Assembly: GCA_041304525.1 (NCBI GenBank)
Contig: JBFYNF010000045.1
Location: 7,479 to 71,478, forward strand
Direction: 5' to 3'
From: Thermoplasmata archaeon
GTDB lineage: Archaea > Thermoplasmatota > Thermoplasmata > UBA10834
Length of the DNA: 64,000 nucleotides
Positions 5,601 to 37,351 of the stretch are shown here, piece after piece (within the stretch, counting starts at the first letter, position 1; every line of letters begins with the position of its first letter). Made by a program: the position numbers and the translations under genes. The notes beneath the pieces are model-generated. The model had not been told where the DNA came from and ran no database searches. It was given only the letters and a program-made list of their open reading frames with translations.

Positions 5601-6601
5601 TCACCTTCACCGCATCCGCGAGCGACGCCAACGGCGACCCGTTGACCATGACGCTCGAGTTCGGAGATGGAACGCTAGCGGTCGACACCACCGAAGGAGG
5701 TTCGACGGAAGCTCAGACCGTGGTCTTCACCCACACATACACGGCCGAGGGACCGTTCTCGGCGACGCTTTATGCAGACGACAGCACGACGAACTCGTCG
5801 TTGCCGTTCTCCGCCAGGGTGTCCGAGAACGCAGCGCCTGATGTCTCGATGCAGTCGTCGTTCGTTGCGGGATTCAACGTCACCTTCGAGATAGCGCCGA
5901 TCGAAGTCTCGGACGATGATGGCGACGTGGTGACGATCTGGTACGACTGGGGAGACGAGACGCCCATGACCATGGGCGACCCTGAGGACTATTACTCGGC
6001 GACGCACGTGTACATGGACATCGGGACATTCACCGTGAAGGTGTATGCGGACGACGGGATGGGGCACAACGACAGCATATCCGTGCCCGTGATGGTCAGC
6101 GAGACCAACCTCAAGCCCACGTTGGCCGACCTGACCTTGACCCCCGAGGCCGACACATACTTTGTCGGCGACGTGATCACCTTCACCGTGAAGGTCAGCG
6201 ACCAGGAGGGAGACAACGTCACAGTGGTGATCGACTTCGACGATGATACGACCGACCAGATGGTCGTCGACACACTGCCCGGCAACGTCAACGCAACGGT
6301 GAACTTCACGCACGCGTTCGAGACGATCGGGGACTACTCGGTAGTCGCGAGCGTCACGGACGGAGAGGACCACTCGGACATGACGCCGCAATCCAGGACC
6401 ACGGATGTGGACATCGTCGGCCAACCGGTCGATACCAACTGGATCCTCATAGGCGGGATACTCCTGCTGATTGTGGCCGTGATCGTGGCCGCGTTCCTGC
6501 TGATGAAGCGGAAGAAGGGAGCTGAGCCCGCCGCCGGCGAGGACGGAATGGAAGGGATGGCCGCCCCGGTGGACCAGTCCCCGCCCCCACCTCTGAACTG
6601 A
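2693..6601 (+). CDS. ABC transporter substrate-binding protein (family 5, peptide/nickel type) fused to six PKD domains and a C-terminal TM anchor
   Basis: N-terminal signal/TM segment, then about 620 aa that look like SBP family 5. Six repeats follow with PKD signatures (WGDGS, WVWDDGT, WEWDDGT, FGDGT, WGDET, FDDDT). The C-terminus has a hydrophobic helix plus KRKKG. Two permease genes follow. Confidence 0.85.
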   Translation: MTSMYMGTSKRVLAFFLATAFLFMAIPMAADTPPPVREAAALGETYVQVGYMNMEISFWNPLTIQMVEDYVACYLMYSALWTYDEDWAGPVSDLALEWDSEPQANGSMNTYVRITDNAYFRNMGNLADTSQKLTAYDVSWTFNLIMNNTGYTFDWYLRDIYEIEVLSDTELIIKTTFVKATLIDDLSGVPILCEDYWGDLSQPMAKSMAPEAQYGTGPFVYEDHEEASWYAFKKAPNYFGEIEYGGDRTIDIDGIMYRIYTDPSGIALALNSGDVDAVNLGGEVTTYMEVLGVGTSLDIDKFAVSEPGICDVAINGIPDFFDTNTYYNGNPILRDPFVRQAIMMTLDKTYIVGTILNGLATPAASVVQPGAWQADIDEYAFDPAAARQILIDHGYSADDDGDTLLEATSSSMAVQEGWCDEGDELSGFRCEAPDTDQNYYTIALNWVNDAYEAGVGLVAAQKSEGVMTSKAWYLSDYDIWVWHWGWGPEPIGAALTCWLTEEIRDGGYNCQGPMGPWWVHGESADYEENYSTSPFVDAAMIEEFGMDEEGFIGFSAFDQNISIAQQTLDVTERKVILDKLQQWVYDSYTENPPYYDLGLYGVSTAHFVGWGDWEEHNGRPMTSDLLWTWFDLMNADNLAPEFTSDLDTDYQALINQDFYVTVQVKDRDGDPITVNCTWGDGSLPEQMLLTGDTTIAESVTFTHQYTTVASDLELMISAWDGLQNHEASTSALVDVVTILDYGPVIVPGSLVGTPASPVYIEQAVDWTISASDAETDETGALKFTWVWDDGTYDVSEQIPAELGGTVTDTQTHTWTDIGTKVVEVWVFDGYQDDETSSEHNITATKTYTVLENTAPYSLSASEILWTPDTWATVSGSAIDNDPDTLTFTWEWDDGTFNVTSVLNEDPGSTLANSVKHMWDADGTYDVTLWVDDGNDHNESVSGTVTISSNPGPTALAVVQEPNPGWVDQEITFTASASDANGDPLTMTLEFGDGTLAVDTTEGGSTEAQTVVFTHTYTAEGPFSATLYADDSTTNSSLPFSARVSENAAPDVSMQSSFVAGFNVTFEIAPIEVSDDDGDVVTIWYDWGDETPMTMGDPEDYYSATHVYMDIGTFTVKVYADDGMGHNDSISVPVMVSETNLKPTLADLTLTPEADTYFVGDVITFTVKVSDQEGDNVTVVIDFDDDTTDQMVVDTLPGNVNATVNFTHAFETIGDYSVVASVTDGEDHSDMTPQSRTTDVDIVGQPVDTNWILIGGILLLIVAVIVAAFLLMKRKKGAEPAAGEDGMEGMAAPVDQSPPPPLN

Positions 6602-20919: not shown

Positions 20920-21534
20920 ATGAAGAAGATATCCAAACCCAGAAGGGTGCGGATGGGCGAAGAGGCCGAGATGGGGGTCGGGACATTGCTGATCTTCATC
21001 GCGATGATACTTGTCGCGGCGGTTGCCGCGGGGGTGCTCGTCCAGACCGCGTATGTACTACAGCAGCAGGCGGAGTCGACAGGAGATCAAGCACTGATGG
21101 AAGTGGCAACGGGATTCAGAATACTCGCGGCGTACGGGGTGACGAACCTATCGGTCCCTGAGGTGACCGACCTATACATCAAGATAACCTTGGCGGCAGG
21201 TAGCCCGGTCATCAACCTCGAGCACGTGATCATCGAGATCACGAACGGCGACAACGACGTTTCGCTGGCGTTCAATGTCACTGGCTCTGATGTGGATTAC
21301 TTCGGCGCGACACAGATCAGGGACACCTATCCCACGAACGACTGGACCACTGGCGAGCCGGGGATGACACAAGGCGACATCGCCCTCATCCACGTGAACC
21401 TTAGTGCGAACAGCCTCAGTCTGGCGTCGCAGCAGCAGGCGGACCTGTTGATCATCCCGAAGCACGGCATACCGACATACCTGTCGGTGGTTGCGCCGTC
21501 AGTGCTCTCGAACACCTACGAGAACCTCACCTAG
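20920..21534 (+). CDS. flaB: archaellin (FlaB/ArlB) 1
   Basis: Class III signal peptide and conserved hydrophobic N-terminus EMG|[26 protein letters not shown], followed by a beta-rich domain. Confidence 0.9.
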   Translation: MKKISKPRRVRMGEEAEMGVGTLLIFIAMILVAAVAAGVLVQTAYVLQQQAESTGDQALMEVATGFRILAAYGVTNLSVPEVTDLYIKITLAAGSPVINLEHVIIEITNGDNDVSLAFNVTGSDVDYFGATQIRDTYPTNDWTTGEPGMTQGDIALIHVNLSANSLSLASQQQADLLIIPKHGIPTYLSVVAPSVLSNTYENLT

Positions 21535-21557: not shown

Positions 21558-22019
21558 ATGAACGAGGACGGGGAAGCCGCGTTGGAAGTGATTTCGGTCG
21601 ATTCGAGGACCAACATCATCACGATGCGGTGGCTCTCGTTCCTCATGGACAAGATTGACCCTGAGGCATTGCCTGAGCTGTTCGTCTTCTACAAGAGGAT
21701 AGGGTGGCTGGGAACGCAGGCAGCCGCGTACATGTCTGCGTTGGCCGAAGGGGCGAAGCCCGAAGCGCCTTCTGAAGAGCAGGCGCTGATGGAAGAGGAC
21801 GTCGAAGACCACAACCTCCTGATAAGGAGAGGGACCGATTCCGGAAAGGAACCGATGGTGGAAGAGGTCGACTGGCGGCTGACGCCCGAGGACCACATCA
21901 AGTGCTGGATGTTCATGATGGAGATAGCCGGATTGGACGTCGATAGGAACACTTGGGTAGAGGTCGACGAGCGCATCAGCCGGTTCGAGAGAAGGCTCGC
22001 GGACTACTACAAGGTATGA
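21558..22019 (+). CDS. FlaD/FlaE-family archaellum accessory protein (short form)
   Basis: TMRWLSFLMDKI...FYKRIGWLG...DWRLTPEDHIKCWMFMMEIAGLDVD aligns with the C-terminal FlaD/E domain of 25285..26442. Confidence 0.65.
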   Translation: MNEDGEAALEVISVDSRTNIITMRWLSFLMDKIDPEALPELFVFYKRIGWLGTQAAAYMSALAEGAKPEAPSEEQALMEEDVEDHNLLIRRGTDSGKEPMVEEVDWRLTPEDHIKCWMFMMEIAGLDVDRNTWVEVDERISRFERRLADYYKV

Positions 22020-22365: not shown

Positions 22366-24087
22366 ATGGGGCTTCGCAAGATCCGACAACTGAGGGCACA
22401 GGACGAAGAAGCCGATATCGGTATCGGTACTCTGATCATCTTCATCGCGATCGTACTAGTGGCGGCCATTGCGGCATCGCTCATACTGTACGCGGCCGCG
22501 CTGCTCCAGGAGCAGGCTGAGAGGACCGCGGACGACGCAGTATCGGAAGTGGCTGGTGGCCTGTCGGTCATCAACATAGCGGGTGACCGAAACCCGGACG
22601 GAGAAGCGTCGACGATAGTCTCGGGATACATGCCGGTGACTGACAACCATGCGCCCATCGGTGGAATACTATGGAATGTCACAGCCTCGACCGACGGGAC
22701 GTCAGTACTAGGGGTTGCCCTGAACTGGACCCCTGCGAACGATTTCGGGTCAGGGTTGTACGAGGAGATCGTGTACCGCACCTCCGTGTACGATCCCACC
22801 AACCCGGCCGTATTCAACGAACAGATCGCAAGGAACCGTCTCTTGACGCTCGACCAGCTGAACCCATCCATGGAGCTCGTCAGGCTCGGCGCGGGTTCCA
22901 GGTCTACCGTCCAATACACTGACTACACCGTTAGGGACGACAACTCGACCTCCTACGCCTACGCCATAGTGGGCGTGGACAGGGCGGGGAACGTCGTACT
23001 CTACACAGCCATCGACAGCTCCACCTCCACGGACGGCTCGTCGCATGACGAGGACCTCGTGCCGCCCTCCGGCGGCTCGATGACGAGCACTGCCAGGCCC
23101 GACGAATATTCAGTGGCGCTGTTCTGGGTGCCTGCGAGTGACGGCGCGAGCGGAATAGATGCTCAGAGGCTGTACAGGACCGAGGGGGCTGTGAGCTCTC
23201 TGCCTATAACCATCCAGGATGGAAGGACCGTGGTGACTGTCCCAGTCACGGTGACACTCTTGGAGGAGTTCAATTCCACCACATCGAGTCACGTCGACGC
23301 TCCCTCTGAGATCGGGGTGTACACGTACTTCATCGTGGTCCGAGACAACGCTGGGAACGAGGAGTTCATCGGCACCCTCAGTTACGACGCGCAGACGGTC
23401 GATTCGAACCCGCCCGAGAACGCAGGGTCGGTATCCGTCAGACAGGCCCCACAGTCAATGAACATATCCTGGACGGAGGCGACCGATGCGCAGACGGCTG
23501 TCTCTTCGTACCTGATCTTCAGGAGCACGAGTATCGGCACCCTTGACACGATTGAAGAGCTCATGACCATGGCGCCGTTGGCGGAGCTCGACTCGAGCGC
23601 CGGGAACTACTCCGACTACTCCGGTACGTCGGGCACGCTCTACTACTACGCAGTCGTGGCAGTCGATTCCGCCGGCAATTACGCTCAGTCCTCGATGCCA
23701 TCCAACACCATACAGATGATCGAGATCAAAGTCAAGACCGTCCCGGGAAGCAGGCCTGTGCAGTTCACGACCATGATGATCGAGATAACCGATGGCATGA
23801 CCGATGTCACCCTGAACTTCAACTCCGGTCAGTTGGGGGCCTCCGGCGCGACCGCCACCATGTTCTCCGCAGAGATCCTGAGGGATCCCGACAGCACCTT
23901 CGCCACCACATTCTCACTCTACGATGGTGCCCTAGTGAAGGTCTTCATCGACGCGGGCGAGATTGGATTGAGCCTGCATGCGGACTCGTCGTTCTCCCTC
24001 AAGTTCATACCGGCAATCGGGCAGCCGACCCTCGAGGAGTGCAGGATACCATACCTCGGTACGTATAGGTACGTAATACTCGTGTGA
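22366..24087 (+). CDS. flaB: giant archaellin (573 aa) with three FN3-like domains inserted
   Basis: Archaellin N-terminus ADIG|IGTLIIFIAIVLVAAIAASL and archaellin-like C-terminal domain (IQMIEIKVKTVPGSRP...ITDGMTDVTLNFN). About 360 aa between them hold three repeats with an FN3-like pattern (L.W.PA.D..SG....YR ... Y.Y.VV.VD.AGN). Confidence 0.8.
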   Translation: MGLRKIRQLRAQDEEADIGIGTLIIFIAIVLVAAIAASLILYAAALLQEQAERTADDAVSEVAGGLSVINIAGDRNPDGEASTIVSGYMPVTDNHAPIGGILWNVTASTDGTSVLGVALNWTPANDFGSGLYEEIVYRTSVYDPTNPAVFNEQIARNRLLTLDQLNPSMELVRLGAGSRSTVQYTDYTVRDDNSTSYAYAIVGVDRAGNVVLYTAIDSSTSTDGSSHDEDLVPPSGGSMTSTARPDEYSVALFWVPASDGASGIDAQRLYRTEGAVSSLPITIQDGRTVVTVPVTVTLLEEFNSTTSSHVDAPSEIGVYTYFIVVRDNAGNEEFIGTLSYDAQTVDSNPPENAGSVSVRQAPQSMNISWTEATDAQTAVSSYLIFRSTSIGTLDTIEELMTMAPLAELDSSAGNYSDYSGTSGTLYYYAVVAVDSAGNYAQSSMPSNTIQMIEIKVKTVPGSRPVQFTTMMIEITDGMTDVTLNFNSGQLGASGATATMFSAEILRDPDSTFATTFSLYDGALVKVFIDAGEIGLSLHADSSFSLKFIPAIGQPTLEECRIPYLGTYRYVILV

Positions 24088-24566: not shown

Positions 24567-25181
24567 ATGCAGAAACTAGCATGGAAGAAGAGGAAGATGG
24601 AAGAGGAAGGTGAGATGGGTGTTGGTACCCTTCTGATCTTCATCGCCATGATACTCGTAGCCGCTGTGGCCGCGGGTGTACTGGTTCAGACCGCATACAA
24701 GTTGCAGCAACAGGCTGAGAGCACCGGTAACGAGGCACTGCAGGACGTCGCCACGGGCTTCAAGGTCCTGACTGTCTGGGGAACCACGGGCACTGGTGGG
24801 AACATCACTGACGTGTACCTGAAGATCGCCCTTACGGCGGGCAGCCCCGGCATCAACCTTGCAGACGCCAAGATCGAGGTCATACAGACAATCGGCGGAA
24901 CCACTGCCTCTGAAGTGACCCTTGATTATGTGGACGGCGCGCCATCGGCATCGGCGTTCAACGCAACTGTGCTGAGGGACATGGCTCCGTCGACGACTGC
25001 CGCGATGATGACCTCTGGCGACATATTCCAGGTCCACCTTGACCTCGAGACGATGGTCATGGGTCTGGATGTCCAGGAGCAGCTCTCTGTGTTGCTGATG
25101 CCGAAGCACGGTGTCCCAACACTGTGTGAGATAACTGCGCCCTCGACGCTCGAGGCAAGCAGCGTGGTTGTCCTGAAGTAG
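24567..25181 (+). CDS. flaB: archaellin (FlaB/ArlB) 3
   Basis: ATG at 24567 preceded by [26 protein letters not shown]|[26 protein letters not shown] is identical in protein to flaB1 over the N-terminal helix. Both are 204 aa. Confidence 0.9.
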
Positions 25182-25284: not shown

Positions 25285-26442
25285 ATGGCTGGCCTGTTCC
25301 GCAAGAAACCAGAGAAAGACGGTTCCTCCGCAAGAAGGAAGCTGAAAGGCTTCGAGGAGGGATTCGAAGAGGAGGCGGAAGAGGGGGCCTACGAGGAGAC
25401 TGAGACTAGCCAGAGAGCCGACAAACTCGTCAGCGCGGAAGATGAAGACTACTTGGGAGAGGACGAGGCCAGCGGCGCAGGTCTCGCAGGCGTCAAGGAG
25501 CTAAGCGAGCTCATGGGACGCCTGGAGGAGATCGAGGACAAGATGGGCCGGATCGACTCCGCTCTCACAACGGATCGGAACGAGAATGCCAAGGTCCGGG
25601 ACCGGCTCAATCAGATGGAACAGGACATCAGGAAGCTCCTTTCCGTCTACGAGGTCGTGTCCACCAAGTTCAACCCCTTCCTAGATGTCTCCGAGAAGAC
25701 CCCCCCACCTGTCCAGCCCCAACCGGCTGTGATGCCTGAGCCCGCTCCGTTCGCTCCAATCGAGCTGGACGGGGACATACCGGAGTTCCGGCCATATCAG
25801 GAAGGGGAAGTGGAGCCGCCCACCTTCAATGGCAAAGGGCCCAAGGCCAGCCGCGACGCCGCCCCGTGGGAGCCAGGGACGTCAACCGCTACCGTTGAGA
25901 CAGTGTTCTCCGGACCCAGGAGAGAGCCCCCACCGACACTCGACAAGACCTCGAAGGACGAGAAGTATGAAAGGCAGGTGAGAGCGTCCGCGAGGAGCAA
26001 ACACAACAAGAAGCCGCTCCTTGCGTACATCCCACACGACTACCTGACGCTGGTCCTCGTGATGCGCTGGATAGAGTTCCTGTTCGAGCGCGTGACCAGG
26101 GAAAGGATGTCGCTCGTGCTAGACTACTATGTCGATGTAGGATGGATCAGCGAGGACGTGAAATCAGAGATCATGTCCTACGCGCGCGGAGAAATGCAGG
26201 ATGTGACCAAGTACATGGGCCAAGAGGAGGTAAGGGAGGACGTGTTCCGCGACCTCCCGCCGCCGACAGCGGCCCCGTACAAGAAGGTCGAGGACTGGCG
26301 TCTGTCCGCAGACGACCACCTGAAGTCCCTGCTGTTCGTGCAGAAGATAGCCGGACTAGAGGTTGACAAGGACCGCCTTAACTCCCTCGAACAGAACATC
26401 TCCAAATTCAAGGAGAGTCTGGAGGGCTTTCATGGGGTTTAG
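25285..26442 (+). CDS. FlaC/FlaD/FlaE-type fusion protein (ArlCDE-like)
   Basis: N-terminal coiled coil ending LSVYEVVSTKFNPFLD (FlaC-like), a Pro-rich linker, then the FlaD/E domain (LVMRWIEFLF...YYVDVGWISEDV...DWRLSADDHLKSLLFVQKIAGLEVD). Confidence 0.8.
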   Translation: MAGLFRKKPEKDGSSARRKLKGFEEGFEEEAEEGAYEETETSQRADKLVSAEDEDYLGEDEASGAGLAGVKELSELMGRLEEIEDKMGRIDSALTTDRNENAKVRDRLNQMEQDIRKLLSVYEVVSTKFNPFLDVSEKTPPPVQPQPAVMPEPAPFAPIELDGDIPEFRPYQEGEVEPPTFNGKGPKASRDAAPWEPGTSTATVETVFSGPRREPPPTLDKTSKDEKYERQVRASARSKHNKKPLLAYIPHDYLTLVLVMRWIEFLFERVTRERMSLVLDYYVDVGWISEDVKSEIMSYARGEMQDVTKYMGQEEVREDVFRDLPPPTAAPYKKVEDWRLSADDHLKSLLFVQKIAGLEVDKDRLNSLEQNISKFKESLEGFHGV

Positions 26443-27622
26443 TGTCTCGGCTACAATGGCGATATTCTTCGCCGCCTTTCTAATCCTTTTTTCTATTCTT
26501 TATTCCTCTTTGAACGACGCCTTCGACTCTGTGTCGGAGTCGTTCGATGAGAAGTACGAATACATGAACGATCGACTCGATACGCAAGTGACGATACTCG
26601 ACGTCAGTTACCAGAGGGACTCAAACACCCTAGATATCAGGGTCCAGAACACTGGCAGCAAGGTCCTGGACATATCCAAGGTCGACCTGATTCTGGAAGG
26701 GGCCATCCCCACGTCGTTCAATAAGACCATCCAGGGGACGGACACAGAGGTTTGGCTCCCGACTGAGGTCCTCACGATCACTGTCGATGATCCCGATGTG
26801 TCATTCGAGACTGACCTCGACCCGCGCGCTTCGCTCACCAATGACGCCTCCCTGTCTGCCCCCTCGAATGTCTCCGTTGGAGAGAGCGTCTACGTCCTGG
26901 ATGGACAGGACATAGATGTCTTCACGCTCGGAGGTGTCTTCGATTTCACGATTACAGACTCATCAAACATGGTCTCGCCCTCTGACCTGAAAGTGTGGGG
27001 AGATTATCTCTACGTACTGGACGAGGGCACACACATCGATCGGTTCGGACTCGACGGGGCTTGGGTGGACCGGATAGTGAACGACACGACGAACTCGTCC
27101 ATCCTGACCTCATTCAGCGTCGATTCCGAGTACATATACATCATAGACAACAGGAGCCACATCGACCGGTATGGCCTGGCCACAGGAATATTCGTGGACT
27201 CGATTGTGCCGAACGGAGGCACGATGACATCGCCGCGAGACATCTTCGTCAGCTCGCACATCTTCGTGATCGACTACAGTTCGGGATACCATGTTGACGT
27301 GTACGAGCTGGACGGCAGCGGAGGGACGGAGTTAGTCGGCACGGTAGGGCTCTCGTCGCCAACGGATATCTGTGCCAGCGCGAACGGCCTGGACGACGTG
27401 TATGTGTATGTCGTCAACGGATCGAGCGAGGTGGCCGTGTTCAACGCAACGGGGTCGCCCGTGGACATAGTCGACAGCCTGCTGAGCGACTCTGTGATCG
27501 CCGTAGACGTCACAGGCAAGATGTATGTCTCTGACAATGTGAATGGACTCGTCGTGGAGAACCTGGGTACTAACATCAAAGTGGTGGTAGAGAATGGAAT
27601 CTCATGTGTCACAGTGCAATAG
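26432..27622 (+). CDS. flaF: FlaF-like protein fused to six-bladed NHL-like beta-propeller
   Basis: N-terminal TM helix plus an FlaF/G-type beta-sandwich (TQVTILDVSYQRDSNTLDIRVQNTGSKVLD). Six ~40-aa repeats of the form sP.d..v....iYViD....hIdrF.l.G follow. The start overlaps the upstream stop. Confidence 0.65.
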   Translation: MGFSVSATMAIFFAAFLILFSILYSSLNDAFDSVSESFDEKYEYMNDRLDTQVTILDVSYQRDSNTLDIRVQNTGSKVLDISKVDLILEGAIPTSFNKTIQGTDTEVWLPTEVLTITVDDPDVSFETDLDPRASLTNDASLSAPSNVSVGESVYVLDGQDIDVFTLGGVFDFTITDSSNMVSPSDLKVWGDYLYVLDEGTHIDRFGLDGAWVDRIVNDTTNSSILTSFSVDSEYIYIIDNRSHIDRYGLATGIFVDSIVPNGGTMTSPRDIFVSSHIFVIDYSSGYHVDVYELDGSGGTELVGTVGLSSPTDICASANGLDDVYVYVVNGSSEVAVFNATGSPVDIVDSLLSDSVIAVDVTGKMYVSDNVNGLVVENLGTNIKVVVENGISCVTVQ

Positions 27623-27631
27623 GAGGTGGAG

Positions 27632-28072
27632 ATGATGGGCGCAAGCGGAGCATCGACTCAGCTGATATTCTTCATATCCGCGTTGATCGTGGCAACGGCA
27701 GTAGTCGCCGTGGCCGCCAACGGGGTGTCCAAGATAACCAACGGGATAGACCAGAAGAGCGATAATGTGGAGAAGGATCTGCTGACGGACATTTCGATAA
27801 TAAACGACCCTGACGAGATCCCGAACGACCCTGTCAGGATATATGTCAAGAACGTGGGCAAGACCGTCCTGAACCAAAACTATATCACAGTAATGCTGGA
27901 TGGGTTTGCGGTCACGAACTACACGCTGACGCTGAGCGGGAGCACGTTGTCCTACTGGGACCCCGCGAGCATGCTGACGATATCAATAGACCAGAATTTG
28001 GCAGAGGGGGACCATTCGGTACAGGTGACCACCGAGAACGGCGTCTCTGACAAGCTCAGCTTCCGCATATGA
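27632..28072 (+). CDS. flaG: FlaG-like archaellum protein
   Basis: AGGAGG RBS. Archaellin-like N-terminus GASGASTQLIFFISALIVATAVVAV plus a beta-sandwich (VRIYVKNVGKTVLN). Position between flaF and flaH. Confidence 0.7.
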   Translation: MMGASGASTQLIFFISALIVATAVVAVAANGVSKITNGIDQKSDNVEKDLLTDISIINDPDEIPNDPVRIYVKNVGKTVLNQNYITVMLDGFAVTNYTLTLSGSTLSYWDPASMLTISIDQNLAEGDHSVQVTTENGVSDKLSFRI

Positions 28073-28076
28073 CGGG

Positions 28077-28787
28077 GTGAACCCTCCAATGGGGGAGACC
28101 TACAAGCTACAGATACCCAGAGACGACCTACATGACCAGCTAGGTCAGGGCCTCCCCGCGGGAACGATAACGTTGGTCGAGGGAGCGCATGGGACCGGAA
28201 AAAGCGCCCTCGTCCAGCGGATGATCTACGGATTCCTTTCGAACCAACACTCGGTAACGTGCATATCGACGGAGCTGACCGTCAGGGACTTCATCAACCA
28301 GATGTACTCGCTCGACTACCCCATATCCTCATGGCTCCTGAACGGGAAACTGAAGTTCGTGCCTGTGTACCCACTCGTGGGCAAGGCCAGGAAGAGGAGC
28401 GACTTCCTGGGCATGCTGATGGGCTCCGAGGAACTGTACAAGAGTGACATCATGATCATAGATACCTTCTCCAGCCTCGTCAGCAACAGCCTTCATGGGG
28501 AAGACAACAGCATAGGTGTGCTGTCATTCTTCAAGAGACTCACCGGCATGGGTAAGAGCATCGTGGTGACAGTGGACCCGACTGAACTGGACCCTAAGGC
28601 GCTCGCACCGTTCGAGTCGGACAGTCACGTGTATTTGAGCATAATCGTGTCACAGGTCGGCGGGATGATATCCAGGAGCATCATGGTGAAGCGGTTCGGT
28701 GGCACCGAGTACAGGGTGTCCCCGGTCGTGGGCTTCAGGATAGAGCCTAATGTGGGCATGGTCATCGAGATCACATCAGTCGTGTGA
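28077..28787 (+). CDS. flaH: FlaH (ArlH) KaiC/RecA-like ATP-binding protein
   Basis: Walker A VEGAHGTGKSALV, about 235 aa, located upstream of flaI. GTG at 28077 or ATG at 28089. Confidence 0.85.
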   Translation: MNPPMGETYKLQIPRDDLHDQLGQGLPAGTITLVEGAHGTGKSALVQRMIYGFLSNQHSVTCISTELTVRDFINQMYSLDYPISSWLLNGKLKFVPVYPLVGKARKRSDFLGMLMGSEELYKSDIMIIDTFSSLVSNSLHGEDNSIGVLSFFKRLTGMGKSIVVTVDPTELDPKALAPFESDSHVYLSIIVSQVGGMISRSIMVKRFGGTEYRVSPVVGFRIEPNVGMVIEITSVV

Positions 28788-28797
28788 GGTCACGGTC

Positions 28798-30429
28798 ATG
28801 GCGGCGAAGTTCAGCAAGGTCCTGGAACGGAATCCCCACCTGAACGTCTATCTTCAGAGATACGCTCAGGAGACAAACCAGTCGCCGAAGTTCATGGACA
28901 CACTGGGCAGGGATCTCGGGAAGGAGGCGACCGTGGATGTCATCTACCCTGTCGGCGACCCGATATTCATACACCTGCACGGCTCCAAGGACACCGGGCA
29001 CAAGTACGATGTCGTGCAGCCAATGATGGAGGACGAGCTTGGCAAAGCGTACGAGAAGGTCGTCAATAATGTCTTCTTGAAGTCAGGGAAGGAGAAGATC
29101 CACTCGACCGATGAGGAGTTCAACGAGGTCCTGGACAAGCTCCTGAACGAAATAGTCGAGGTCACAGAGAGACGCATCCCCTCGAAGGTCGTACAGCTGT
29201 TCAAACCCAACTCCAAGATCTACGTCACCCCAGATGACTACAGCATCCTGGAGTACTACGTCAAGAGGAACATCCTCCAGAACGGCATCCTCGAACCGAT
29301 ACTCAGGGACCCGTACATAGAGGACATCCACTGCGTCGGCGTCAGGGAGGTGAACCTGTACCACAAGATCCTGGGCATGGTGGAGACGAACATCAAGTTC
29401 TCGAACGTCTCAGACCTGGACAAGTACACCAAGGGGATGAGTGAAAGGATGGGTCGTCCCGCATCGATATCGAGACCGATCATCGACGGCGCCCTCCCGG
29501 ACGGTTCCCGTATCAACATCATCTACGCTGACGACGTGAGCGTCAACGGGCCGACATTCACCATCAGGAAGTTCTCAGCGGAGCCGCTGAGTGCCGCTCA
29601 ACTCTCTGGATGGAACACTGTCTCCGCGCAGGAGGCCGCATACCTCTGGCTCTGTCTCGAGAACGGCATGAGCGTGTTCGTCTGCGGTGAGACCGCCTCA
29701 GGTAAGACGACCCTGCTCAACGCCATATTCCCGTTCATAAGGTACGACCAGAAGATATTCTCGGCTGAGGACACCCTGGAGGTGCAGCCGCCTCACGCCG
29801 TCTGGCAACAATTATCCACAAGGGAGTTCGGCCCGGAGGAGAGCAAGGTGGACACCTTCGCCCTCCTGAGAGCTGGACTCAGGTCCAGACCCAACTACAT
29901 CATCGTGGGTGAGATCAGAGGGAAGGAAGGGAACGTCGCGTTCCAGGCGATGCAGACTGGCATCCCGGTCATGGCGACATTCCACGCCGCCTCCGTCAAG
30001 AGGATGATACAGAGGTTCACCGGCGCCCCGATCAGCGTGCCCATCACGAGCATGGACAACCTCAACGTGGCGGTCTTCCAGGCGGGCGTATACAGGAACG
30101 GGAAGTTGATCAGGAGGACCCTGTCCATCGAGGAGATACTGGGCTACAGCGAGTCGATGGGCGGAGTGATGACCAGGGCAGTCTTCGTATGGAACCCGGT
30201 GAGCGACCAGCACATATTCCGAGGGATGAACAACTCGTTCATACTGGAGGAAAGGATCGCCGTCAAGAGGGGGTACAAGGACAAGAGGGACATATACAAG
30301 GAACTCGCCCTCAGGACCAGGATCATCGAGAAGATGGTCGAGACGAACATGACCTCCTACAAGACAGTCAACGACATCCTCAAGGCATTTCAGAAGGAGG
30401 GAGTGGCCGGCCTGCCGTTCACGGTCTGA
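28798..30429 (+). CDS. flaI: FlaI (ArlI) archaellum ATPase, copy 1
   Basis: Type II/IV secretion ATPase motifs: Walker A GETASGKTT, Walker B/Asp box NYIIVGEIRGKEG, LRDPYIEDIH. The start at MAAKFSKVLERNPHL aligns with copy 2. Confidence 0.9.
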   Translation: MAAKFSKVLERNPHLNVYLQRYAQETNQSPKFMDTLGRDLGKEATVDVIYPVGDPIFIHLHGSKDTGHKYDVVQPMMEDELGKAYEKVVNNVFLKSGKEKIHSTDEEFNEVLDKLLNEIVEVTERRIPSKVVQLFKPNSKIYVTPDDYSILEYYVKRNILQNGILEPILRDPYIEDIHCVGVREVNLYHKILGMVETNIKFSNVSDLDKYTKGMSERMGRPASISRPIIDGALPDGSRINIIYADDVSVNGPTFTIRKFSAEPLSAAQLSGWNTVSAQEAAYLWLCLENGMSVFVCGETASGKTTLLNAIFPFIRYDQKIFSAEDTLEVQPPHAVWQQLSTREFGPEESKVDTFALLRAGLRSRPNYIIVGEIRGKEGNVAFQAMQTGIPVMATFHAASVKRMIQRFTGAPISVPITSMDNLNVAVFQAGVYRNGKLIRRTLSIEEILGYSESMGGVMTRAVFVWNPVSDQHIFRGMNNSFILEERIAVKRGYKDKRDIYKELALRTRIIEKMVETNMTSYKTVNDILKAFQKEGVAGLPFTV

Positions 30430-30485: not shown

Positions 30486-30608
30486 CTTCAGGTTCTGGAT
30501 TGGCCTTTGAGGCCACCGAGCGCAGGCTCCACAGGGCTACCTCCGCCCAAGGGTGCGGCATTGGCTCTGCTCAGGAGCCGCTTGAGGCGCCTCAGCGGAT
30601 GGGTGAGG

Positions 30609-32258
30609 ATGCCTGCAGACGAAGCTGGCCTGAAGAAGGCCATGAGGAAGAACCCGCACCTCCTTGAATACGTCCAGGAGTTCGTCAGCAGACACAGGTC
30701 GCCTCCAGAGTTCCACCCCGTGGTCGAACGCAAGATGGGGGACGAGCAGCAGGTCAACGTGATCTACCCGATAGGCGACCCGCTCTTTGTCCATGTGTTC
30801 TCGACAGATAGCATACCCATCAGCTACAAGTCCGTGCAGCCGCCGATGACGCCGGACCTGCAGCCCAAGTACAGAAAGGTCATCCAACAGGTCTACAACA
30901 AGGCCGTCTACATGGACCCGCACGAATCTGTGGAGGAGTTCGAGAAGAATCTCCTGCAGCTGATAGACGCCTCGACAAAGATCTCCGAGAGCAGCACGGA
31001 TGGCGACGGCAAACGCATCTTCGGCGACCTTTTCACGGAGCCAAAGATATTCGTCACCCAGCACGAGCAAGACCTGATCAAATACCATGCGAAGCTGGCG
31101 ATTGTGCTAGCAGGACCCCTTGAGCCACTCCTCAGAGACCCGTACATCGAAGATATCCACTGCATCGGACACGACAACGTCTCCATCGTCCACAAGATAT
31201 TCCAGGCGATGCCGACCGATGTGAAGTTCGAGTCGATGGAGGAACTCGACAACTATGTTCGGGCCTTGAGCGAGAGGATAGGCAGGCCGGCGTCGATGGC
31301 TAGGCCGATAGTGGACGGTACGCTTCCTGACGGGTCACGTATCAACCTCATCTACGCTGACGATGTGAGCGTCAAAGGCCCCAGCTTCTCCATCAGGAAG
31401 TTCGCCGAGGAACCTATAAGCATAACCCACCTGATCGAATGGAACACCATCAGCGCCCAGGAAGCCGCCTACATATGGCTCTGCCTGGAAGAAGGCATGA
31501 GCATATTCTTCTGCGGGGAGACGGCGTCGGGCAAGACGACGACCATGGGCGCGGCCCTCCCATTCATCAAGTACGACAGCAAGGTCTACACGGCCGAGGA
31601 CACCATCGAGATGCAGGTTCCACACAAGGTGTGGCAGAGGTTGGCAACGCGGGACTTCGGCCCTGAGGAGAGCAGGGTCGACACGTTCTCACTGCTCAAG
31701 GCCGCTCTAAGATCGAGACCGAACTTCATCATAGTCGGAGAGATTAGGGGCAAGGAAGGGAGCGTTGCGTTCCAGGCCATGCAAACGGGCCACCCCGTCC
31801 TGTCCACGTTCCACGCGGCATCGACGAGGAAGCTCATACAGAGATTCACCAGCGACCCCATCAATGTGCCCATCACGTTCATAGACAACCTGAATGTCGC
31901 GTTCTTCCAGGCAGGCGTGTACAGGGAAGGTAAATTCCTGAGACGGACGATGTTCATTGATGAGATCGTCGGGTACAACGAAGCGCTAGGCGGGATCATG
32001 ACCCGGACCATCTTCCTGTGGAACGCCGCGGACGACTCTCACATGTTCAAGGGGATGAACAACTCCTACATCCTCGAGGAGAAGATTGCGGTCAAGAGGG
32101 GCTACAGTGACAAGAGGAAGATATACGGTGACCTGGCCCTCAGGACCAAGATACTCGAAGAGATGGTCTCCAGGAAGATATTCAAGTACGAGAAGGTGGC
32201 GGAGATAACCAAGGAGTTCCAGAAGAAGGGGGTGAGCGGCCTACCGTTCCCCGTGTAG
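30609..32258 (+). CDS. flaI: FlaI (ArlI) archaellum ATPase, copy 2
   Basis: Same motifs as copy 1 (GETASGKTT, NFIIVGEIRGKEG) and alignable end to end. ATG at 30609 is preceded by GGTGAGG. Confidence 0.9.
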   Translation: MPADEAGLKKAMRKNPHLLEYVQEFVSRHRSPPEFHPVVERKMGDEQQVNVIYPIGDPLFVHVFSTDSIPISYKSVQPPMTPDLQPKYRKVIQQVYNKAVYMDPHESVEEFEKNLLQLIDASTKISESSTDGDGKRIFGDLFTEPKIFVTQHEQDLIKYHAKLAIVLAGPLEPLLRDPYIEDIHCIGHDNVSIVHKIFQAMPTDVKFESMEELDNYVRALSERIGRPASMARPIVDGTLPDGSRINLIYADDVSVKGPSFSIRKFAEEPISITHLIEWNTISAQEAAYIWLCLEEGMSIFFCGETASGKTTTMGAALPFIKYDSKVYTAEDTIEMQVPHKVWQRLATRDFGPEESRVDTFSLLKAALRSRPNFIIVGEIRGKEGSVAFQAMQTGHPVLSTFHAASTRKLIQRFTSDPINVPITFIDNLNVAFFQAGVYREGKFLRRTMFIDEIVGYNEALGGIMTRTIFLWNAADDSHMFKGMNNSYILEEKIAVKRGYSDKRKIYGDLALRTKILEEMVSRKIFKYEKVAEITKEFQKKGVSGLPFPV

Positions 32259-32265
32259 GTCCTCC

Positions 32266-33927
32266 ATGGCTGCGAGCAAGATGAAGCGTCTCTACCAGTC
32301 CCTCGACATGCCCGTTGAGAAGTACTTCACGAGATACGCTCTCCCGCTCGTGATAGCGGGCATCGGCGCGACTGCCCTGCTGGTCTTCCTATTCCCCGAA
32401 CTGGCGGCCGATGGGCTGTTCAAGTATGTGTTCCTGGCAATCCCTGTCCTCTTCTCGGTCGTGGCAGTAATATACCCGATGCTACAGGGTGAACGGAAGA
32501 AGGTCCAGATAGAAAGGAACATGCACCTGTTCCTCGTCAGGATGAGCGTCCTCTCGACATCGAAGCTGCCAAGGAAGAAGATGCTCGAGATCCTTTCGAA
32601 GGTCAAGGAATATGAAGCGCTCAGCCTTGAAATCGAGAAGATCTACAAGCTCATGGAATACTGGAACATGGGTCTCTCGGACGCCGCGAGGACCGTCTCC
32701 CGCAAGACTCCCTCGCCGATGCTAGCAGATTTCCTCGACAGGCTCGCGCACTCATCCGATGCGGGCGAGGACCTCGAGGAGTTCCTCACCAAGGAGCGGG
32801 AGGTGTCCATGAGCGTCTACATCAACAAGTACGAGACGGCGCTCAAGGACCTCGACCTGCTGAACGAGATATTCGTCGCCGTGCTGATATCCCTGATGTT
32901 CATCCTCGTGTTCGTCGCGCTCCTGCCCGTGTTCGTGGACATATCCATCACCCTCATTCTTCCGGGCGTCGCGCTGCTGTTCGTCATCGTCGAGGGGATG
33001 GTGCTGTATCTGGTCAAATCGCTACTTCCATCGGACCCCATATGGCACAACATCAAGGGGCAGACCGAGATCGACAAGGTGATGAAGTCCGTCCTTCCGG
33101 CGACATACGCGGCATGCATCGGGTTCGCCGCCTTCGGGTTCCTGACGGGCTTACCCCTGATGCTCATAGTCGCGCTTGTCGTCACACCGCTCCTGTATCC
33201 AGGGTTCATGATAAGGAGGGAGGAGAAGCGGGTCAGGGCCAGGGACGAGAACTACGATTCGTTCATGAGGGCCGTGGGCAGCTACGCGGCATCTGCTGGC
33301 TCCGCGGTCACGGATGGCGTCGGCAGGCTGAGCAAGCACGACTTCGGGGAGCTCTCGGAAGGCATAGTGATCCTGTACAAGCGCCTGCTCACCCGGATAG
33401 ACCAGATACGCGCCTGGAACCTGTTCGCAGCCGAGAGCGGGAGCAACCTGATCTCCAAGTTCACGGAGATGTATGTCGTCGGTCTGTCCGTGGGCGGGAA
33501 GGTGGACAAGGTCATCGACATCATCAGCGACAACTTCGTGAAGCTGATGGGCGTCAGGCGCAAGAGGTACCAGTCATCCGACAACATGCTGGGGACATTG
33601 TATGGGATGTCCGTCGGCATAACGTTCACCTTGTTCTCCGCGCTGAGCCTGATGCAACTCCTGAACATCATGAACGAGCAGTTCGCGCTCTCCCAGACGA
33701 CGATCAATCTGCCCATCGCGCTGAAGCCATTCGACCTGGGCCTGGCTGAGGCGGTCTTCCTGCTCATCATGCTCGTGCACTCGCTCATATCCGCGAACCT
33801 CGTCTCCTTCGCCGGCGGCAGCCACAAGCATAGTTTCTACATCAACTTCGCAATCATAACATGGATCAGCACCGTGACGGCCATCGTCACACAGTTGATG
33901 CTCGACAAGGTCCTGAACCTCTCATGA
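32266..33927 (+). CDS. flaJ: FlaJ (ArlJ) archaellum membrane platform protein
   Basis: 553-aa polytopic membrane protein with a duplicated T2SS-F-like organisation, directly downstream of flaI. Confidence 0.85.
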   Translation: MAASKMKRLYQSLDMPVEKYFTRYALPLVIAGIGATALLVFLFPELAADGLFKYVFLAIPVLFSVVAVIYPMLQGERKKVQIERNMHLFLVRMSVLSTSKLPRKKMLEILSKVKEYEALSLEIEKIYKLMEYWNMGLSDAARTVSRKTPSPMLADFLDRLAHSSDAGEDLEEFLTKEREVSMSVYINKYETALKDLDLLNEIFVAVLISLMFILVFVALLPVFVDISITLILPGVALLFVIVEGMVLYLVKSLLPSDPIWHNIKGQTEIDKVMKSVLPATYAACIGFAAFGFLTGLPLMLIVALVVTPLLYPGFMIRREEKRVRARDENYDSFMRAVGSYAASAGSAVTDGVGRLSKHDFGELSEGIVILYKRLLTRIDQIRAWNLFAAESGSNLISKFTEMYVVGLSVGGKVDKVIDIISDNFVKLMGVRRKRYQSSDNMLGTLYGMSVGITFTLFSALSLMQLLNIMNEQFALSQTTINLPIALKPFDLGLAEAVFLLIMLVHSLISANLVSFAGGSHKHSFYINFAIITWISTVTAIVTQLMLDKVLNLS

Positions 33928-34249: not shown

Positions 34250-37200
34250 ATGGCCACCGTGAGTAGGACGGCGCTCACGAGCACGATGCTCGTTGTTCTG
34301 CTCCTCCCGATGACGCTCATGGTCCTGCTCCAAGGACCGCCGGCGCCGTCCGCTCACGCATTTCCCATAGACGATTTTGGGAGCAGCATCAGACTCACTT
34401 TCGACCAAGCCATATCGACCAACGTATCCTCCAGCGTGGATGACGACGGCAATATACACGTCGTGTGGGAAGACTACAGGTCCGGGGCCGGGGACATCTA
34501 CTACATGAAGCTGGACGACGAAGGCAACAAACTCACCAACGACGCGAAGATATCCAACGACACCACCGCATCCCGGAACCCATCGGTGGCAGCTGACTCG
34601 GACGGACACATATACATCGTGTGGGAGGATGTGGACAACGGCTCGTCTGAGCTATTGTTCGCGAAGCTGTGGTACTACGAGGGCAACATCACATTCCAGG
34701 AGAATGGGCTCCAGGTATCGGACAGCGACCCCGCGAACTCGACTGAGCCGGACATCGCCGTGTGCCAGGACGGCAACCTATCCTTGGTTTGGACCGACGC
34801 TCGGCACGACGCCGGCGACGGCAACCTGGAGATCTACTATAAGCGCCTGAGGATGTCAGGGACCTCTCTCACACCCGATACGCGCGTGACTGGAGACGTT
34901 GGACGGTCTGAACACCCGAGGCTCGATACAGACTCTGATGGTATGGTCCACATCGTCTGGTACGATTTCAGGGACTCCAGTAACGGCCTGGTGATCAACC
35001 ACGGCGTGTTCTACAGGAAGGTCATAATGGACGGCACGCCCCTGACACCCGAGACGAGGATCACCTTCGCTTCACCTCAGTCGAGGCCTGACATAGCAAT
35101 AGACACTGATGGAAACGTACACGTGGTCTTCGACGACGACCGGTATGCGAGTTTCGACATATTCTACACGCTCCTCGACCCTGACGGGAACACACTCGTG
35201 GATGACAGGAACATCTCACCCAAAGACGACAACGAGTCCAGATGCCCCAGGATAGCCCTGAGCGACTCCAACGCAGTCGATGTCGTGTGGCAGGACCAGA
35301 CGTCCGGTCTATGGGCCATCCACTACTCCGCGATGAACTACAACGGTGAAATCGAGGTCTACGACCAAGGACTGACTTCAGAAACGGTCGGGAACGCCAC
35401 CATCCCTGTGGCGATGTGCGCGAATGACAACAACACCCTCGTGATGTATGTGGGCGACTATCCGAACATGGAGGTGTTCTTCTCAAGGACTCACAGGCCG
35501 GATCCGGCGGTGCTCGCGGGCGGGATTTCCATGTCATCCACCCAACCACTGATCGGGACCACTGTCTGGGTCAATGCGACCGTGTGGAACCTCGAAGGGG
35601 ATGCCCTAACGGATCTGGCTGTCCGCCTGATGGTCGATTCGGTGGCGGTCGAAGACGCCACTGTAGCCTACCTAGTAGCAGGGCACTCAACCGTCGTCAG
35701 TTTCTCACACACAGCGTCCGAAGGCGAGACCATCGTGACTGTGGCCGTCGACCCTGATCAGACCGTAAGGGAGACATTTGAGACCAACAACCAACAGTCA
35801 GCCCCTATGCTCGTCCGGACGCCCGGGGTCGTTCTGACGTCCGACGTCAGCAGCCAATCTGCTGAGCCCGACGAGACGGCCATATTCAACATCACAATCA
35901 CCAACGAAGGCAACACGGCGTTCTCATTCTGTCTGTCGAACTCCGAACCTGAGAGCGGCTGGATCATTGACCTGGGTGGCTCGCCTGAGGGCATCTACAC
36001 GGTTCCCGCAGGCTCGTCGGCCGTGGCTACTGTTGAGGTCACGGTTCCCGAGGATGAGACGCCTGGAGCGCGTGCGTTCTCCGTGCTCGCCACATGCGTC
36101 GAAAGAGACTCCGTCAACGACAGCGTCACCCTCATGGTGGATGTCGTCAGGTTCGGCGAACTGACTGTTGTATCGTCCGACGGAGGAGATGTCGAGCCGA
36201 CCATCCCTGAGCTATACACGTTCACTGTCTCAAACTCGGCCAACGCCAATGAGACCTTCGCGGTCTCGGCCTCCGACCTCCTCGGATGGGACCTCGTCGC
36301 TTCCCATGACGAGCTGGAGCTCGCACCCGGTGAGGAGGCTGAGGTGTCCGTGCTCGTGACGCCTGCTAGGTACGATCCCCCGGGCACACTGAATACGCTC
36401 ACGTTGACCCTGTCATCCATGAACTTGACCTGGAACACAGTGGAAGGGAACTTACTCATGATCGTGGGGCATCACTGGGAGGTCGACGCCAAGCTGACGC
36501 AACAGGCGTTCCTCAACATGTCTGTGCCAGATGAGAGAGAGGTCAGGTACATCCTCGATGTGACGAACCTAGGCAACTCAGATGATGTGTTCAGGCTGAG
36601 TCTATCGGGGATTGATGCGTTCTGGGCCACCCTGAACACGACCTATGTGTTCCTCGGAGCCGGGGACGAGCAGCAAGTCTACATATCCCTCACACCAGGC
36701 GTGGACGTGCTCGCAGGCGCATACCCTTTCAATGTGACCGTCGTGTCGGAATCCGACGACAATGCGACGGAGACCCTGGAGATGGGAGTGTCCGTGTTGC
36801 CGTTCTACGACATCTCAGTATCGGCTGAGTTCGCACAGGTGAGCCTACGACGAGGAGAGACCGCGTTCGTCAACCTGACGGTCCGGAACACCGGCAATTC
36901 GGCGGATGTCGTCGACCTGTACGCGTACGTGGGCGCCCTAAACACGACAACGGCTACCTTTGTGGGTGAGGTGGTGTCACTGGAAACGGGAGACCCCATC
37001 CTCATCGCTCTGGAACCCGGAGGGTCTGCCACAATCATGCTGACGATACCGGTTCCCGGAGATGTCGAGATCGGCTTGCAGGACTTGTGCATGGACTTCA
37101 GTTCCATGACCGACCCGAGCGTTATGGCATCTCAGACCGTCAGTGTGCTAGTAGAGGATGACCCGTCTTGGTTCACTCTGTGGGTCATACTGATCATAGT

Positions 37201-37351
37201 CGGCGCAGCAGTGGCCGTCGTGGTCCTCGTCGTGTTCCTGATACTCAGGAAGAGGAGGGCAGAGGAGGTCGCAAGGGAGGAGGAGCGGCGGAAGATGCAG
37301 GCAAGGAAGAGGCCTCCGGGGCCCCCGAGGGTCAAACCGAAAGCGCCGTGA
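34250..37351 (+). CDS. large surface protein: signal peptide, ~7 beta-propeller-type repeats, CARDB/NEW3-like Ig domains, C-terminal TM anchor
   Basis: N-terminal hydrophobic signal. About 52-aa repeats (D.DG..H.VW.D.R.G...IYY..L...G). Several domains carry [FY]..TV.N.GN..D.F patterns. C-terminal TM helix plus a Lys/Arg-rich tail. Confidence 0.7.
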   Translation: MATVSRTALTSTMLVVLLLPMTLMVLLQGPPAPSAHAFPIDDFGSSIRLTFDQAISTNVSSSVDDDGNIHVVWEDYRSGAGDIYYMKLDDEGNKLTNDAKISNDTTASRNPSVAADSDGHIYIVWEDVDNGSSELLFAKLWYYEGNITFQENGLQVSDSDPANSTEPDIAVCQDGNLSLVWTDARHDAGDGNLEIYYKRLRMSGTSLTPDTRVTGDVGRSEHPRLDTDSDGMVHIVWYDFRDSSNGLVINHGVFYRKVIMDGTPLTPETRITFASPQSRPDIAIDTDGNVHVVFDDDRYASFDIFYTLLDPDGNTLVDDRNISPKDDNESRCPRIALSDSNAVDVVWQDQTSGLWAIHYSAMNYNGEIEVYDQGLTSETVGNATIPVAMCANDNNTLVMYVGDYPNMEVFFSRTHRPDPAVLAGGISMSSTQPLIGTTVWVNATVWNLEGDALTDLAVRLMVDSVAVEDATVAYLVAGHSTVVSFSHTASEGETIVTVAVDPDQTVRETFETNNQQSAPMLVRTPGVVLTSDVSSQSAEPDETAIFNITITNEGNTAFSFCLSNSEPESGWIIDLGGSPEGIYTVPAGSSAVATVEVTVPEDETPGARAFSVLATCVERDSVNDSVTLMVDVVRFGELTVVSSDGGDVEPTIPELYTFTVSNSANANETFAVSASDLLGWDLVASHDELELAPGEEAEVSVLVTPARYDPPGTLNTLTLTLSSMNLTWNTVEGNLLMIVGHHWEVDAKLTQQAFLNMSVPDEREVRYILDVTNLGNSDDVFRLSLSGIDAFWATLNTTYVFLGAGDEQQVYISLTPGVDVLAGAYPFNVTVVSESDDNATETLEMGVSVLPFYDISVSAEFAQVSLRRGETAFVNLTVRNTGNSADVVDLYAYVGALNTTTATFVGEVVSLETGDPILIALEPGGSATIMLTIPVPGDVEIGLQDLCMDFSSMTDPSVMASQTVSVLVEDDPSWFTLWVILIIVGAAVAVVVLVVFLILRKRRAEEVAREEERRKMQARKRPPGPPRVKPKAP

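Follow-up and report, generated by a model that had tools for sequence, protein, structure and literature searches.

We analyzed a 64,000-nucleotide stretch of DNA (hereafter the window; positions 7,479 to 71,478 of contig JBFYNF010000045.1, assembly GCA_041304525.1) from a Thermoplasmata archaeon that has not been cultured and lies close to GTDB order UBA10834, and describe here its archaellum gene arlF (also known as flaF), located at 26432-27622 on the forward strand. The product is an ArlF stator subunit whose immunoglobulin (Ig)-like sandwich, as profile coverage and a structural model show, is interrupted in the beta6-beta7 loop by a six-bladed, NHL-like beta-propeller of ~245 residues (~260 extra residues counting linkers). 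This architecture is orthologous across a deep family. We consider it fairly probable that the insert is a new binding module through which the stator is anchored to the cell envelope. ArlF itself is a known protein, but we found no description of a propeller-bearing ArlF in the searchable literature: full-text searches returned no paper on ArlF/FlaF with a propeller or other large extra domain, and neither is mentioned in two ArlF-focused papers that were checked for them (PMC8667602, PMC13319060).

A propeller nested in the ArlF sandwich

The gene is a single uninterrupted frame of 396 codons plus a stop (27620-27622). The longest form of this open reading frame (ORF) starts at TTG 26363, while ATG 26432, with a GGAGG motif 8-12 nt upstream, gives the N-terminus MGFSVSATMAIFF... 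that is common to nearly all homologs. An earlier note on this DNA, made from the sequence alone, had described the product as a FlaF-type protein with a transmembrane helix and a beta-sandwich, and this identification is confirmed. The NCBIfam ArlF model (NF052590) matches residues 1-120 along profile positions 1-121 of 137 with 110.7 bits against an equivalog cut-off of 110, compared with only 44.6 bits for the NCBIfam ArlG model on the same protein, and Pfam Arch_flagellin scores 33.9 bits on the full protein against a cut-off of 29.5. The protein further has the membrane helix and eight-strand sandwich of ArlF, and its gene has the expected operon place beside arlG.

A single-sequence AlphaFold2 (AF2) model had a predicted local distance difference test (pLDDT) score of 38 and was replaced by a model built from alignment A1, the 37-sequence family, which reached pLDDT 91.2 and a predicted template modeling (pTM) score of 0.84. 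DSSP assigns to this model a helix at residues 3-50 and strands at 53-61, 66-73, 85-88, 96-100, 107-108, and 113-119, followed by the propeller and then by two more strands at 381-385 and 391-395. The order of the sandwich strands is the beta1-beta8 order of the Sulfolobus acidocaldarius FlaF crystal structure (PMC4425475).

The earlier note had placed the propeller after a complete FlaF module ending near residue 125, and here its description has to be revised. In the intact protein the ArlF and Arch_flagellin matches both end before the C-terminus of their profiles. The last residues of the protein, NIKVVVENGISCVTVQ, resemble the C-terminus of the adjoining ArlG, VQVTTENGVSDKLSFRI, and this segment (residues 381-396) aligns with the C-termini of canonical ArlFs as well. 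When residues 129-375 were removed, the resulting chimera matched the ArlF profile from end to end (positions 1-137 of 137, 120.5 bits; the N-terminal part alone covers 1-121 with 115.2 bits), and the Arch_flagellin score rose from 33.9 to 44.2 bits (positions 1-158 of 162). A profile made from propeller-deletion constructs (A2) finds canonical ArlFs of 137-151 residues that span 97% of it at 36-43% identity. In a joint alignment with short ArlFs (A3), the short proteins pass directly from a ...TLTIT... strand to the segment R-V-K-V-V-x-E-N-G-I-S, while the long proteins carry ~250 additional residues between the two. A sequence search of the PDB with A2 matched no FlaF or FlaG entry because the crenarchaeal structures are too divergent, and the insertion topology therefore rests on NCBIfam and Pfam coverage, the alignment with short ArlFs, and strand order. 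Together these place the propeller, by sequence comparison and model, in the beta6-beta7 loop of the sandwich instead of at its C-terminal end; the protein keeps its membrane helix and the eight strands of the sandwich, with residues 381-396 supplying beta7 and beta8. The predicted features of the protein are as follows.

26432..27622, forward strand: arlF, encoding ArlF with a nested six-bladed propeller
26432..26581, forward strand: N-terminal hydrophobic helix, residues 1-50 (membrane anchor and stalk)
26582..26788, forward strand: ArlF sandwich strands beta1-beta6, residues 51-119
26789..26827, forward strand: entry linker from beta6 to the propeller, residues 120-132, ending at R132 (pLDDT ~84-87)
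26828..26842, forward strand: first propeller strand, residues 133-137, inferred to complete blade 6
26861..26953, forward strand: blade 1, residues 144-174
26978..27079, forward strand: blade 2, residues 183-216, YLYVLDEGTHIDRF
27104..27208, forward strand: blade 3, residues 225-259, YIYIIDNRSHIDRY
27239..27337, forward strand: blade 4, residues 270-302
27365..27472, forward strand: blade 5, residues 312-347
27494..27562, forward strand: blade 6, strands A-C, residues 355-377, short and divergent
27563..27571, forward strand: exit linker L-G-T, residues 378-380
27572..27619, forward strand: ArlF strands beta7-beta8, residues 381-396, NIKVVVENGISCVTVQ

Blade boundaries in this list come from blade profiles and the AF2 model. 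The L-G-T exit linker is the most conserved segment of the protein, with a mean information content of 3.97 bits in A1, and residues 2-24 are almost invariant in the close family. Beta7-beta8 are better conserved than the remaining sandwich (3.11 versus 2.52 bits). In Sulfolobus FlaF, beta7 and beta8 are part of the sheet (beta4, beta3, beta7, beta8) that forms a functionally essential dimer interface (PMC4425475).

The six repeat strings quoted in the earlier note were all located in the protein, at residues 152-168, 191-209, 233-252, 275-295, 323-341, and 363-379, and the proposal that they form the blades of a six-bladed, NHL-like propeller is borne out by several approaches. With A1 cut into six blades, profile-profile comparison related every pair among blades 1-5 at E 1e-8 to 1e-17, which argues that the repeats are not due to chance; blade 6 is shorter and divergent, with a best pairwise E of 9e-4. 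The insert thus consists of six tandem, mutually homologous repeats of ~40-44 residues. In the model, 24 propeller strands lie between residues 133 and 377, or 6 blades of 4 strands. Since only three consecutive strands follow residue 355, strand 133-137 would be expected to complete blade 6 in a 1+3 velcro closure uniting the two ends of the insert.

The family profile aligns with solved propellers, matching residues 15-252 of 256 in Pizza6 at profile positions 140-377 (E 1.5e-7) and the NHL region of Thin (E 2.3e-7), with partial matches to the YWTD propellers of LRP2 and LRP6. Foldseek ranked the NHL domains of Brat and Mei-P26 first (E 2.7e-11, target-normalized template modeling score 0.69-0.70), and the modeled fold is accordingly a six-bladed, four-stranded propeller closest to solved NHL domains. 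A YWTD/LDLR class B propeller was considered and rejected, as the protein has no YWTD motif and its structural scores for that class lie below those for NHL domains. The NHL likeness holds for the fold and not for the curated family: the Pfam NHL model (PF01436) gives 10.4 bits against a gathering cut-off of 20, only 3 of 18 diverse family members have even a weak match to it (E < 0.1, best 3.8e-5), and the isolated insert has no significant match in Pfam or NCBIfam. By sequence, then, the insert falls outside every curated repeat family. Some propellers are catalytic (lactonase, PAL, phytase, or strictosidine-synthase type), and one could imagine that this one remodels the envelope around the motor, or that it senses an extracellular signal in the manner of the PknD ectodomain. 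The best-matching solved folds are ligand-binding NHL domains and not catalytic ones, and we consider an enzyme or sensor very improbable.

Conservation of the family and its operon setting

The fusion is conserved in relatives. A first homolog search returned 62 clusters at 29-95% identity, with full-length members of 380-399 residues and a few shorter, fragment-like entries (248-371 residues). An exhaustive phmmer search of 1.84 billion representatives, using the propeller on its own as query, produced only 51 matches at E <= 1e-3, the strongest being proteins of 388-420 residues with the propeller at about residues 130-380. All 14 of the matched proteins that were inspected start with MGF/MGL... 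and end with ...LGTxxK[IV]VTENG.... ArlF was the best N-terminal match in each of 10 scanned members (E 1e-19 to 1e-27, profile positions 1 to 109-129 of 137). This family matters for annotation: source databases label its members "FlaF" or "hypothetical protein," with NCBI using the latter name for several, the split ArlF signature of divergent members falls under the NCBIfam equivalog cut-off, and half of 18 scanned members are missed by the Pfam archaellin model.

Among the members that carry a taxonomic label, all are assigned to Thermoplasmata, Thermoplasmatota, or "Methanobacteriota archaeon," a range that does not include the most divergent sequences (P0082-P0100). The closest genomes are UBA9653 (95%) and S06.Bin063 (94%). 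UBA9653 and UBA10834 (58%) are placed in GTDB order UBA10834, a relative of Methanomassiliicoccales that is uncultured and non-methanogenic (bioRxiv 10.1101/2020.03.09.984617). The subclades are deep, with pairwise identities of 27-45% and locus guanine-plus-cytosine contents of 37-58%. R132, at the entry to the propeller, does not vary in A1 and is conserved at 90% or more in the wider alignment A4, and G379, after the propeller, is invariant. Such complete or nearly complete conservation of both junction residues throughout the family argues that the propeller was inserted once.

Conservation of the propeller is no lower than that of the sandwich (3.01 versus 2.63 bits). Comparison with the 94%-identical ortholog gave an omega of 0.137 at a synonymous divergence (dS) of 0.255, more distant comparisons being saturated, and these substitution rates indicate that the insert is under purifying selection. 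The earlier note had warned that the gene might be two ORFs joined by a sequencing error, in which case a frameshift or missed stop would have fused arlF with a separate propeller gene. The chance of this is negligible, and we regard it as already refuted. The ORF is unbroken, its length and architecture recur in more than 60 independent clusters drawn from many assemblies, among them three complete chromosomes of metagenome-assembled genomes, the C-terminal 16 residues belong to the ArlF fold so that the sandwich ends after the repeats, and the insert is under selection. The other outcome that would have spoken against the note, repeats that do not fold as a propeller, is likewise contradicted by the AF2 model.

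Two family members carry a further domain. In P0098 (627 residues; L024, 8001-9884), whose gene follows arlC/D/E, a Laminin_G_3 (ConA-like lectin) domain (E 4e-20) is nested inside the propeller, and P0084 (565 residues) has another, unassigned insert of ~150 residues at a similar place; both proteins retain the ArlF N- and C-termini. The family clearly illustrates how a molecular machine can acquire a module when one domain is inserted into another, a nesting that in P0098 reaches a second level, with a lectin in a propeller in a sandwich. No second copy of the propeller that might have served as donor was found within the window. The nearest propeller relatives outside ArlF are distant, namely a 1016-residue LVIVD-type protein (34% identity, uninformative context) and giant bacterial NHL proteins.

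The gene occupies the arlF position, since a complete euryarchaeal-type archaellum cluster surrounds it.

20920-21534, forward strand: arlB, an extra archaellin gene upstream
21558-22019, forward strand: stand-alone arlD/E-like gene (Pfam Arch_fla_DE, E 1.6e-15)
22366-24087, forward strand: arlB of 573 residues with Ig/fn3-like inserts
about 24600-25181: arlB
25285..26442, forward strand: arlC/D/E fusion (Pfam FlaC_arch, Arch_fla_DE), overlapping arlF by 11 nt
27626..28072, forward strand: arlG of canonical size (148 residues), encoding the expected ArlF partner
28077-28787: arlH
28750-30429, forward strand: first arlI paralog (NCBIfam FlaI)
30507-32258, forward strand: second arlI paralog (NCBIfam FlaI)
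32266-33927: arlJ
34250-37351, forward strand: predicted surface glycoprotein of 1033 residues, directly after arlJ (domain scan)

ArlG is the best NCBIfam match of the 27626..28072 product, although its 101.9 bits lie below the 110-bit cut-off. The propeller-bearing gene lies directly after arlC/D/E at all 7 loci compared (L001, L002, and L022-L026), whose members are 27-58% identical, and arlG-H-I-J then follow at 6 of these (L001, L002, L022, L023, L025, and L026). The remaining locus, L024, has no arlG-J alongside.

The cluster has several features of its own. Between arlH and arlJ lie tandem paralogs of the ArlI/FlaI motor ATPase that are 56% identical and score 725 and 709 bits against an NCBIfam FlaI equivalog cut-off of 550. 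Descriptions of archaellum operons normally give one ArlI (PMC12448462). L001, L002, L022, and L023 share the duplication, which is not seen in L025 or L026. The extra upstream archaellin and the stand-alone arlD/E-like gene recur as an arrangement in L022, L023, and L002. In the 573-residue archaellin, the N-terminus (residues 17-87) and the C-terminal strands are split by ~370 residues with Big_13/fn3-like Ig domains, which looks like a second domain insertion into an archaellin-type fold within one operon. Its length is kept at 572-573 residues in L002, L022, and L023 and is 602 residues in L024.

The 1033-residue protein encoded after arlJ combines a signal peptide with six DxDGxxxxVWxD BNR-like repeats, many NxS/T N-glycosylation sequons, CARDB, NPCBM_assoc, and FixG_C Ig-like domains, and a C-terminal transmembrane helix with a basic tail. 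Proteins of ~1040-1100 residues with the same domains follow arlJ in L002, L022, and L023, and a 1382-residue relative is encoded near arlF in L024. No CARDB protein of this type was found in L025, L026, or the flank read of L001. The 1033-residue protein is a candidate envelope component or ArlF ligand, offered as a lead only.

The propeller-bearing ArlF does not strictly co-occur with the long archaellin, with the second ArlI, or with the giant CARDB protein. L025 and L026 are without all three, and L001 has the second ATPase and no giant CARDB protein in its flank, its upstream archaellin genes falling outside the contig. No obligatory partner can therefore be claimed among them. This distribution also bears on the suggestion that the propeller contacts the rotating filament or the decorated 573-residue ArlB, as a bearing, guide, or assembly chaperone. 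Archaellins of 572-602 residues do accompany the long ArlF in the window and in L002, L022, L023, and L024. L025 and L026, however, combine a propeller-bearing ArlF with only ordinary archaellins of 209-226 residues, so that the long archaellin and the propeller are separable, and a stator gripping its rotor would oppose rotation. We think a filament-directed propeller very improbable.

Two other large genes in the window deserve mention. A 1302-residue protein (2693-6601, forward strand) with a family-5 solute-binding domain (SBP_bac_5) and several PKD domains is probably a cell-surface substrate-binding protein. A 918-residue protein (59169-61925, reverse strand) that joins an N-terminal Crp-like helix-turn-helix to a STAND-type NTPase (AAA_16/NB-ARC) and to TPR repeats resembles a large regulator of signal transduction.

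Possible roles of the propeller

The way in which the stator of the archaellum is held to the envelope is an unsettled question, and neither ArlF nor ArlG has ever been observed in situ. In Sulfolobus, FlaF/ArlF binds the S-layer (PMC4425475). ArlG makes up a filament that has an ArlF-ArlG heterotetramer as its cap, and cells without an S-layer assemble archaella that are unable to rotate, the S-layer being needed for rotation (PMC4425475, PMC8667602, PMC8978795). Thermoplasmatales swim though they have no S-layer, and a 2025 study that sought a special binding motif in their ArlFs found none (PMC12448462). The propeller-bearing family bears directly on this question, in host organisms that are uncultured.

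In the reading that we favor, the long ArlF would still pair with the canonical ArlG encoded next door, while its propeller would lie outside the membrane and bind a component of the cell envelope, giving the motor a fixed thing to push against. The double short tether, with 13 residues ending at R132 on one side and L-G-T on the other, would make a stiff, load-bearing connection suited to torque. By the usual topology of propellers both linkers would enter the "bottom" face, leaving the "top" face free. The earlier note's suggestion of a different or extra envelope ligand is plausible, and through the propeller the motor probably holds on to the envelope in another way. Such a binding role is suggested by the ligand-binding nature of the nearest folds and by the nested lectin-type domain of P0098, the gain of which fits an extracytoplasmic binding function. 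Cultured Methanomassiliicoccales lack a wall and an S-layer, or are reported to possess two membranes (PMC10673518). Because cultured members of neighboring orders have no S-layer, the ligand may be a glycoprotein of a non-canonical envelope.

Several points weigh against anchoring by the propeller. The analysis identified no ligand and no S-layer protein. In A1 the propeller's top loops show no preferential conservation (2.80 versus 2.78 bits), and in the wide family their conservation falls below that of the bottom loops (1.88 versus 2.18 bits, p = 0.01), so that the loops bear no mark of a single binding site common to the family. Both the velcro closure and the way the propeller is turned toward the membrane and the ArlG-binding sheet are read from strand order alone. 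The pairing of ArlF with ArlG and the S-layer anchoring model come from Sulfolobus and not from Thermoplasmata, and the absence of an S-layer is known for cultured members of neighboring orders and not for order UBA10834 itself.

The variability of the top loops fits lineage-specific ligands and an alternative role as a self-scaffold equally well. Propellers are common platforms for oligomerization and scaffolding, and this one could drive ArlF-ArlF or ArlF-ArlG oligomerization into a ring or cage around the filament base, which would itself be the anchoring mass or bushing of the stator, with no separate layer of the envelope being bound. Conservation in the propeller is highest in the bottom C-D loops and in strands B and C, and the top loops vary, as would be expected without a conserved external ligand; how many copies of ArlF and ArlG are present in situ, and where they sit, is also not established (PMC8978795). 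The conserved strand residues, however, are the generic structural motif of NHL propellers (YVxD...HxDRF), so they indicate no interface, and the lectin-type LamG domain nested in P0098 points to external binding. We therefore regard a self-scaffold as unlikely.

Envelope anchoring through a ligand also admits a bolder and more doubtful form, in which the propeller is the solution of a large uncultured Thermoplasmata branch to anchoring a stator without a crystalline S-layer. It might then grip membrane-anchored surface glycoproteins or their glycans, with the conserved ~1040-residue CARDB/BNR-like protein encoded after arlJ as one conceivable ligand, and the variable top face and occasional nested lectin might track lineage-specific envelope chemistry. 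If this tentative view were true, the propeller would be the first identified dedicated envelope-binding module of the archaellum stator. The lineage also amounts to a natural experiment that bears on what part of ArlF is turned toward the envelope, with the beta6-beta7 loop as the part in question, and the propeller is a soluble domain that could be expressed as bait for the envelope ligand.

Comparison with known systems

The protein shares with canonical ArlF/FlaF (S. acidocaldarius FlaF, Banerjee et al. 2015, PMC4425475; NF052590) the membrane helix, the eight-strand Ig-like sandwich with its strand order, the conserved beta7-beta8, a score above the NCBIfam cut-off, and an operon place next to arlG. 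Canonical ArlFs have ~137-165 residues, whereas the present one has ~260 more inside the beta6-beta7 loop, and binding of the S-layer by the sandwich has been shown only for Sulfolobus FlaF. The ArlFs of Thermoplasmatales (O. meridianum, T. acidophilum, as well as T. volcanium; PMC12448462) come from the same class and from a similar euryarchaeal-type arl operon with arlC/D. Their AF2 models are close to those of S-layered archaea and have no distinct binding motif, while the present family has a whole extra domain.

Among propellers, the nearest known group is that of the NHL domains (TRIM2, TRIM71, Brat, Mei-P26, the extracellular sensor domain of M. tuberculosis PknD, and the designed protein Pizza6), from which the present insert differs in scoring under the Pfam NHL gathering threshold, in being embedded in another domain, and in its archaeal, extracytoplasmic context. 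YWTD/LDLR class B propellers (LRP2, LRP4, and LRP6) are less similar, as their matches cover only profile positions 159-216 or 188-323 and the present protein has no EGF context.

MotB, a stator protein of the bacterial flagellum, carries a peptidoglycan-binding domain. There is no homology between MotB and ArlF, and the motor, the energy source, and the fold are all different. The likeness would be one of inferred function, in that this ArlF may, as MotB does, use a dedicated extracytoplasmic domain to fix its motor to a rigid layer of the envelope.

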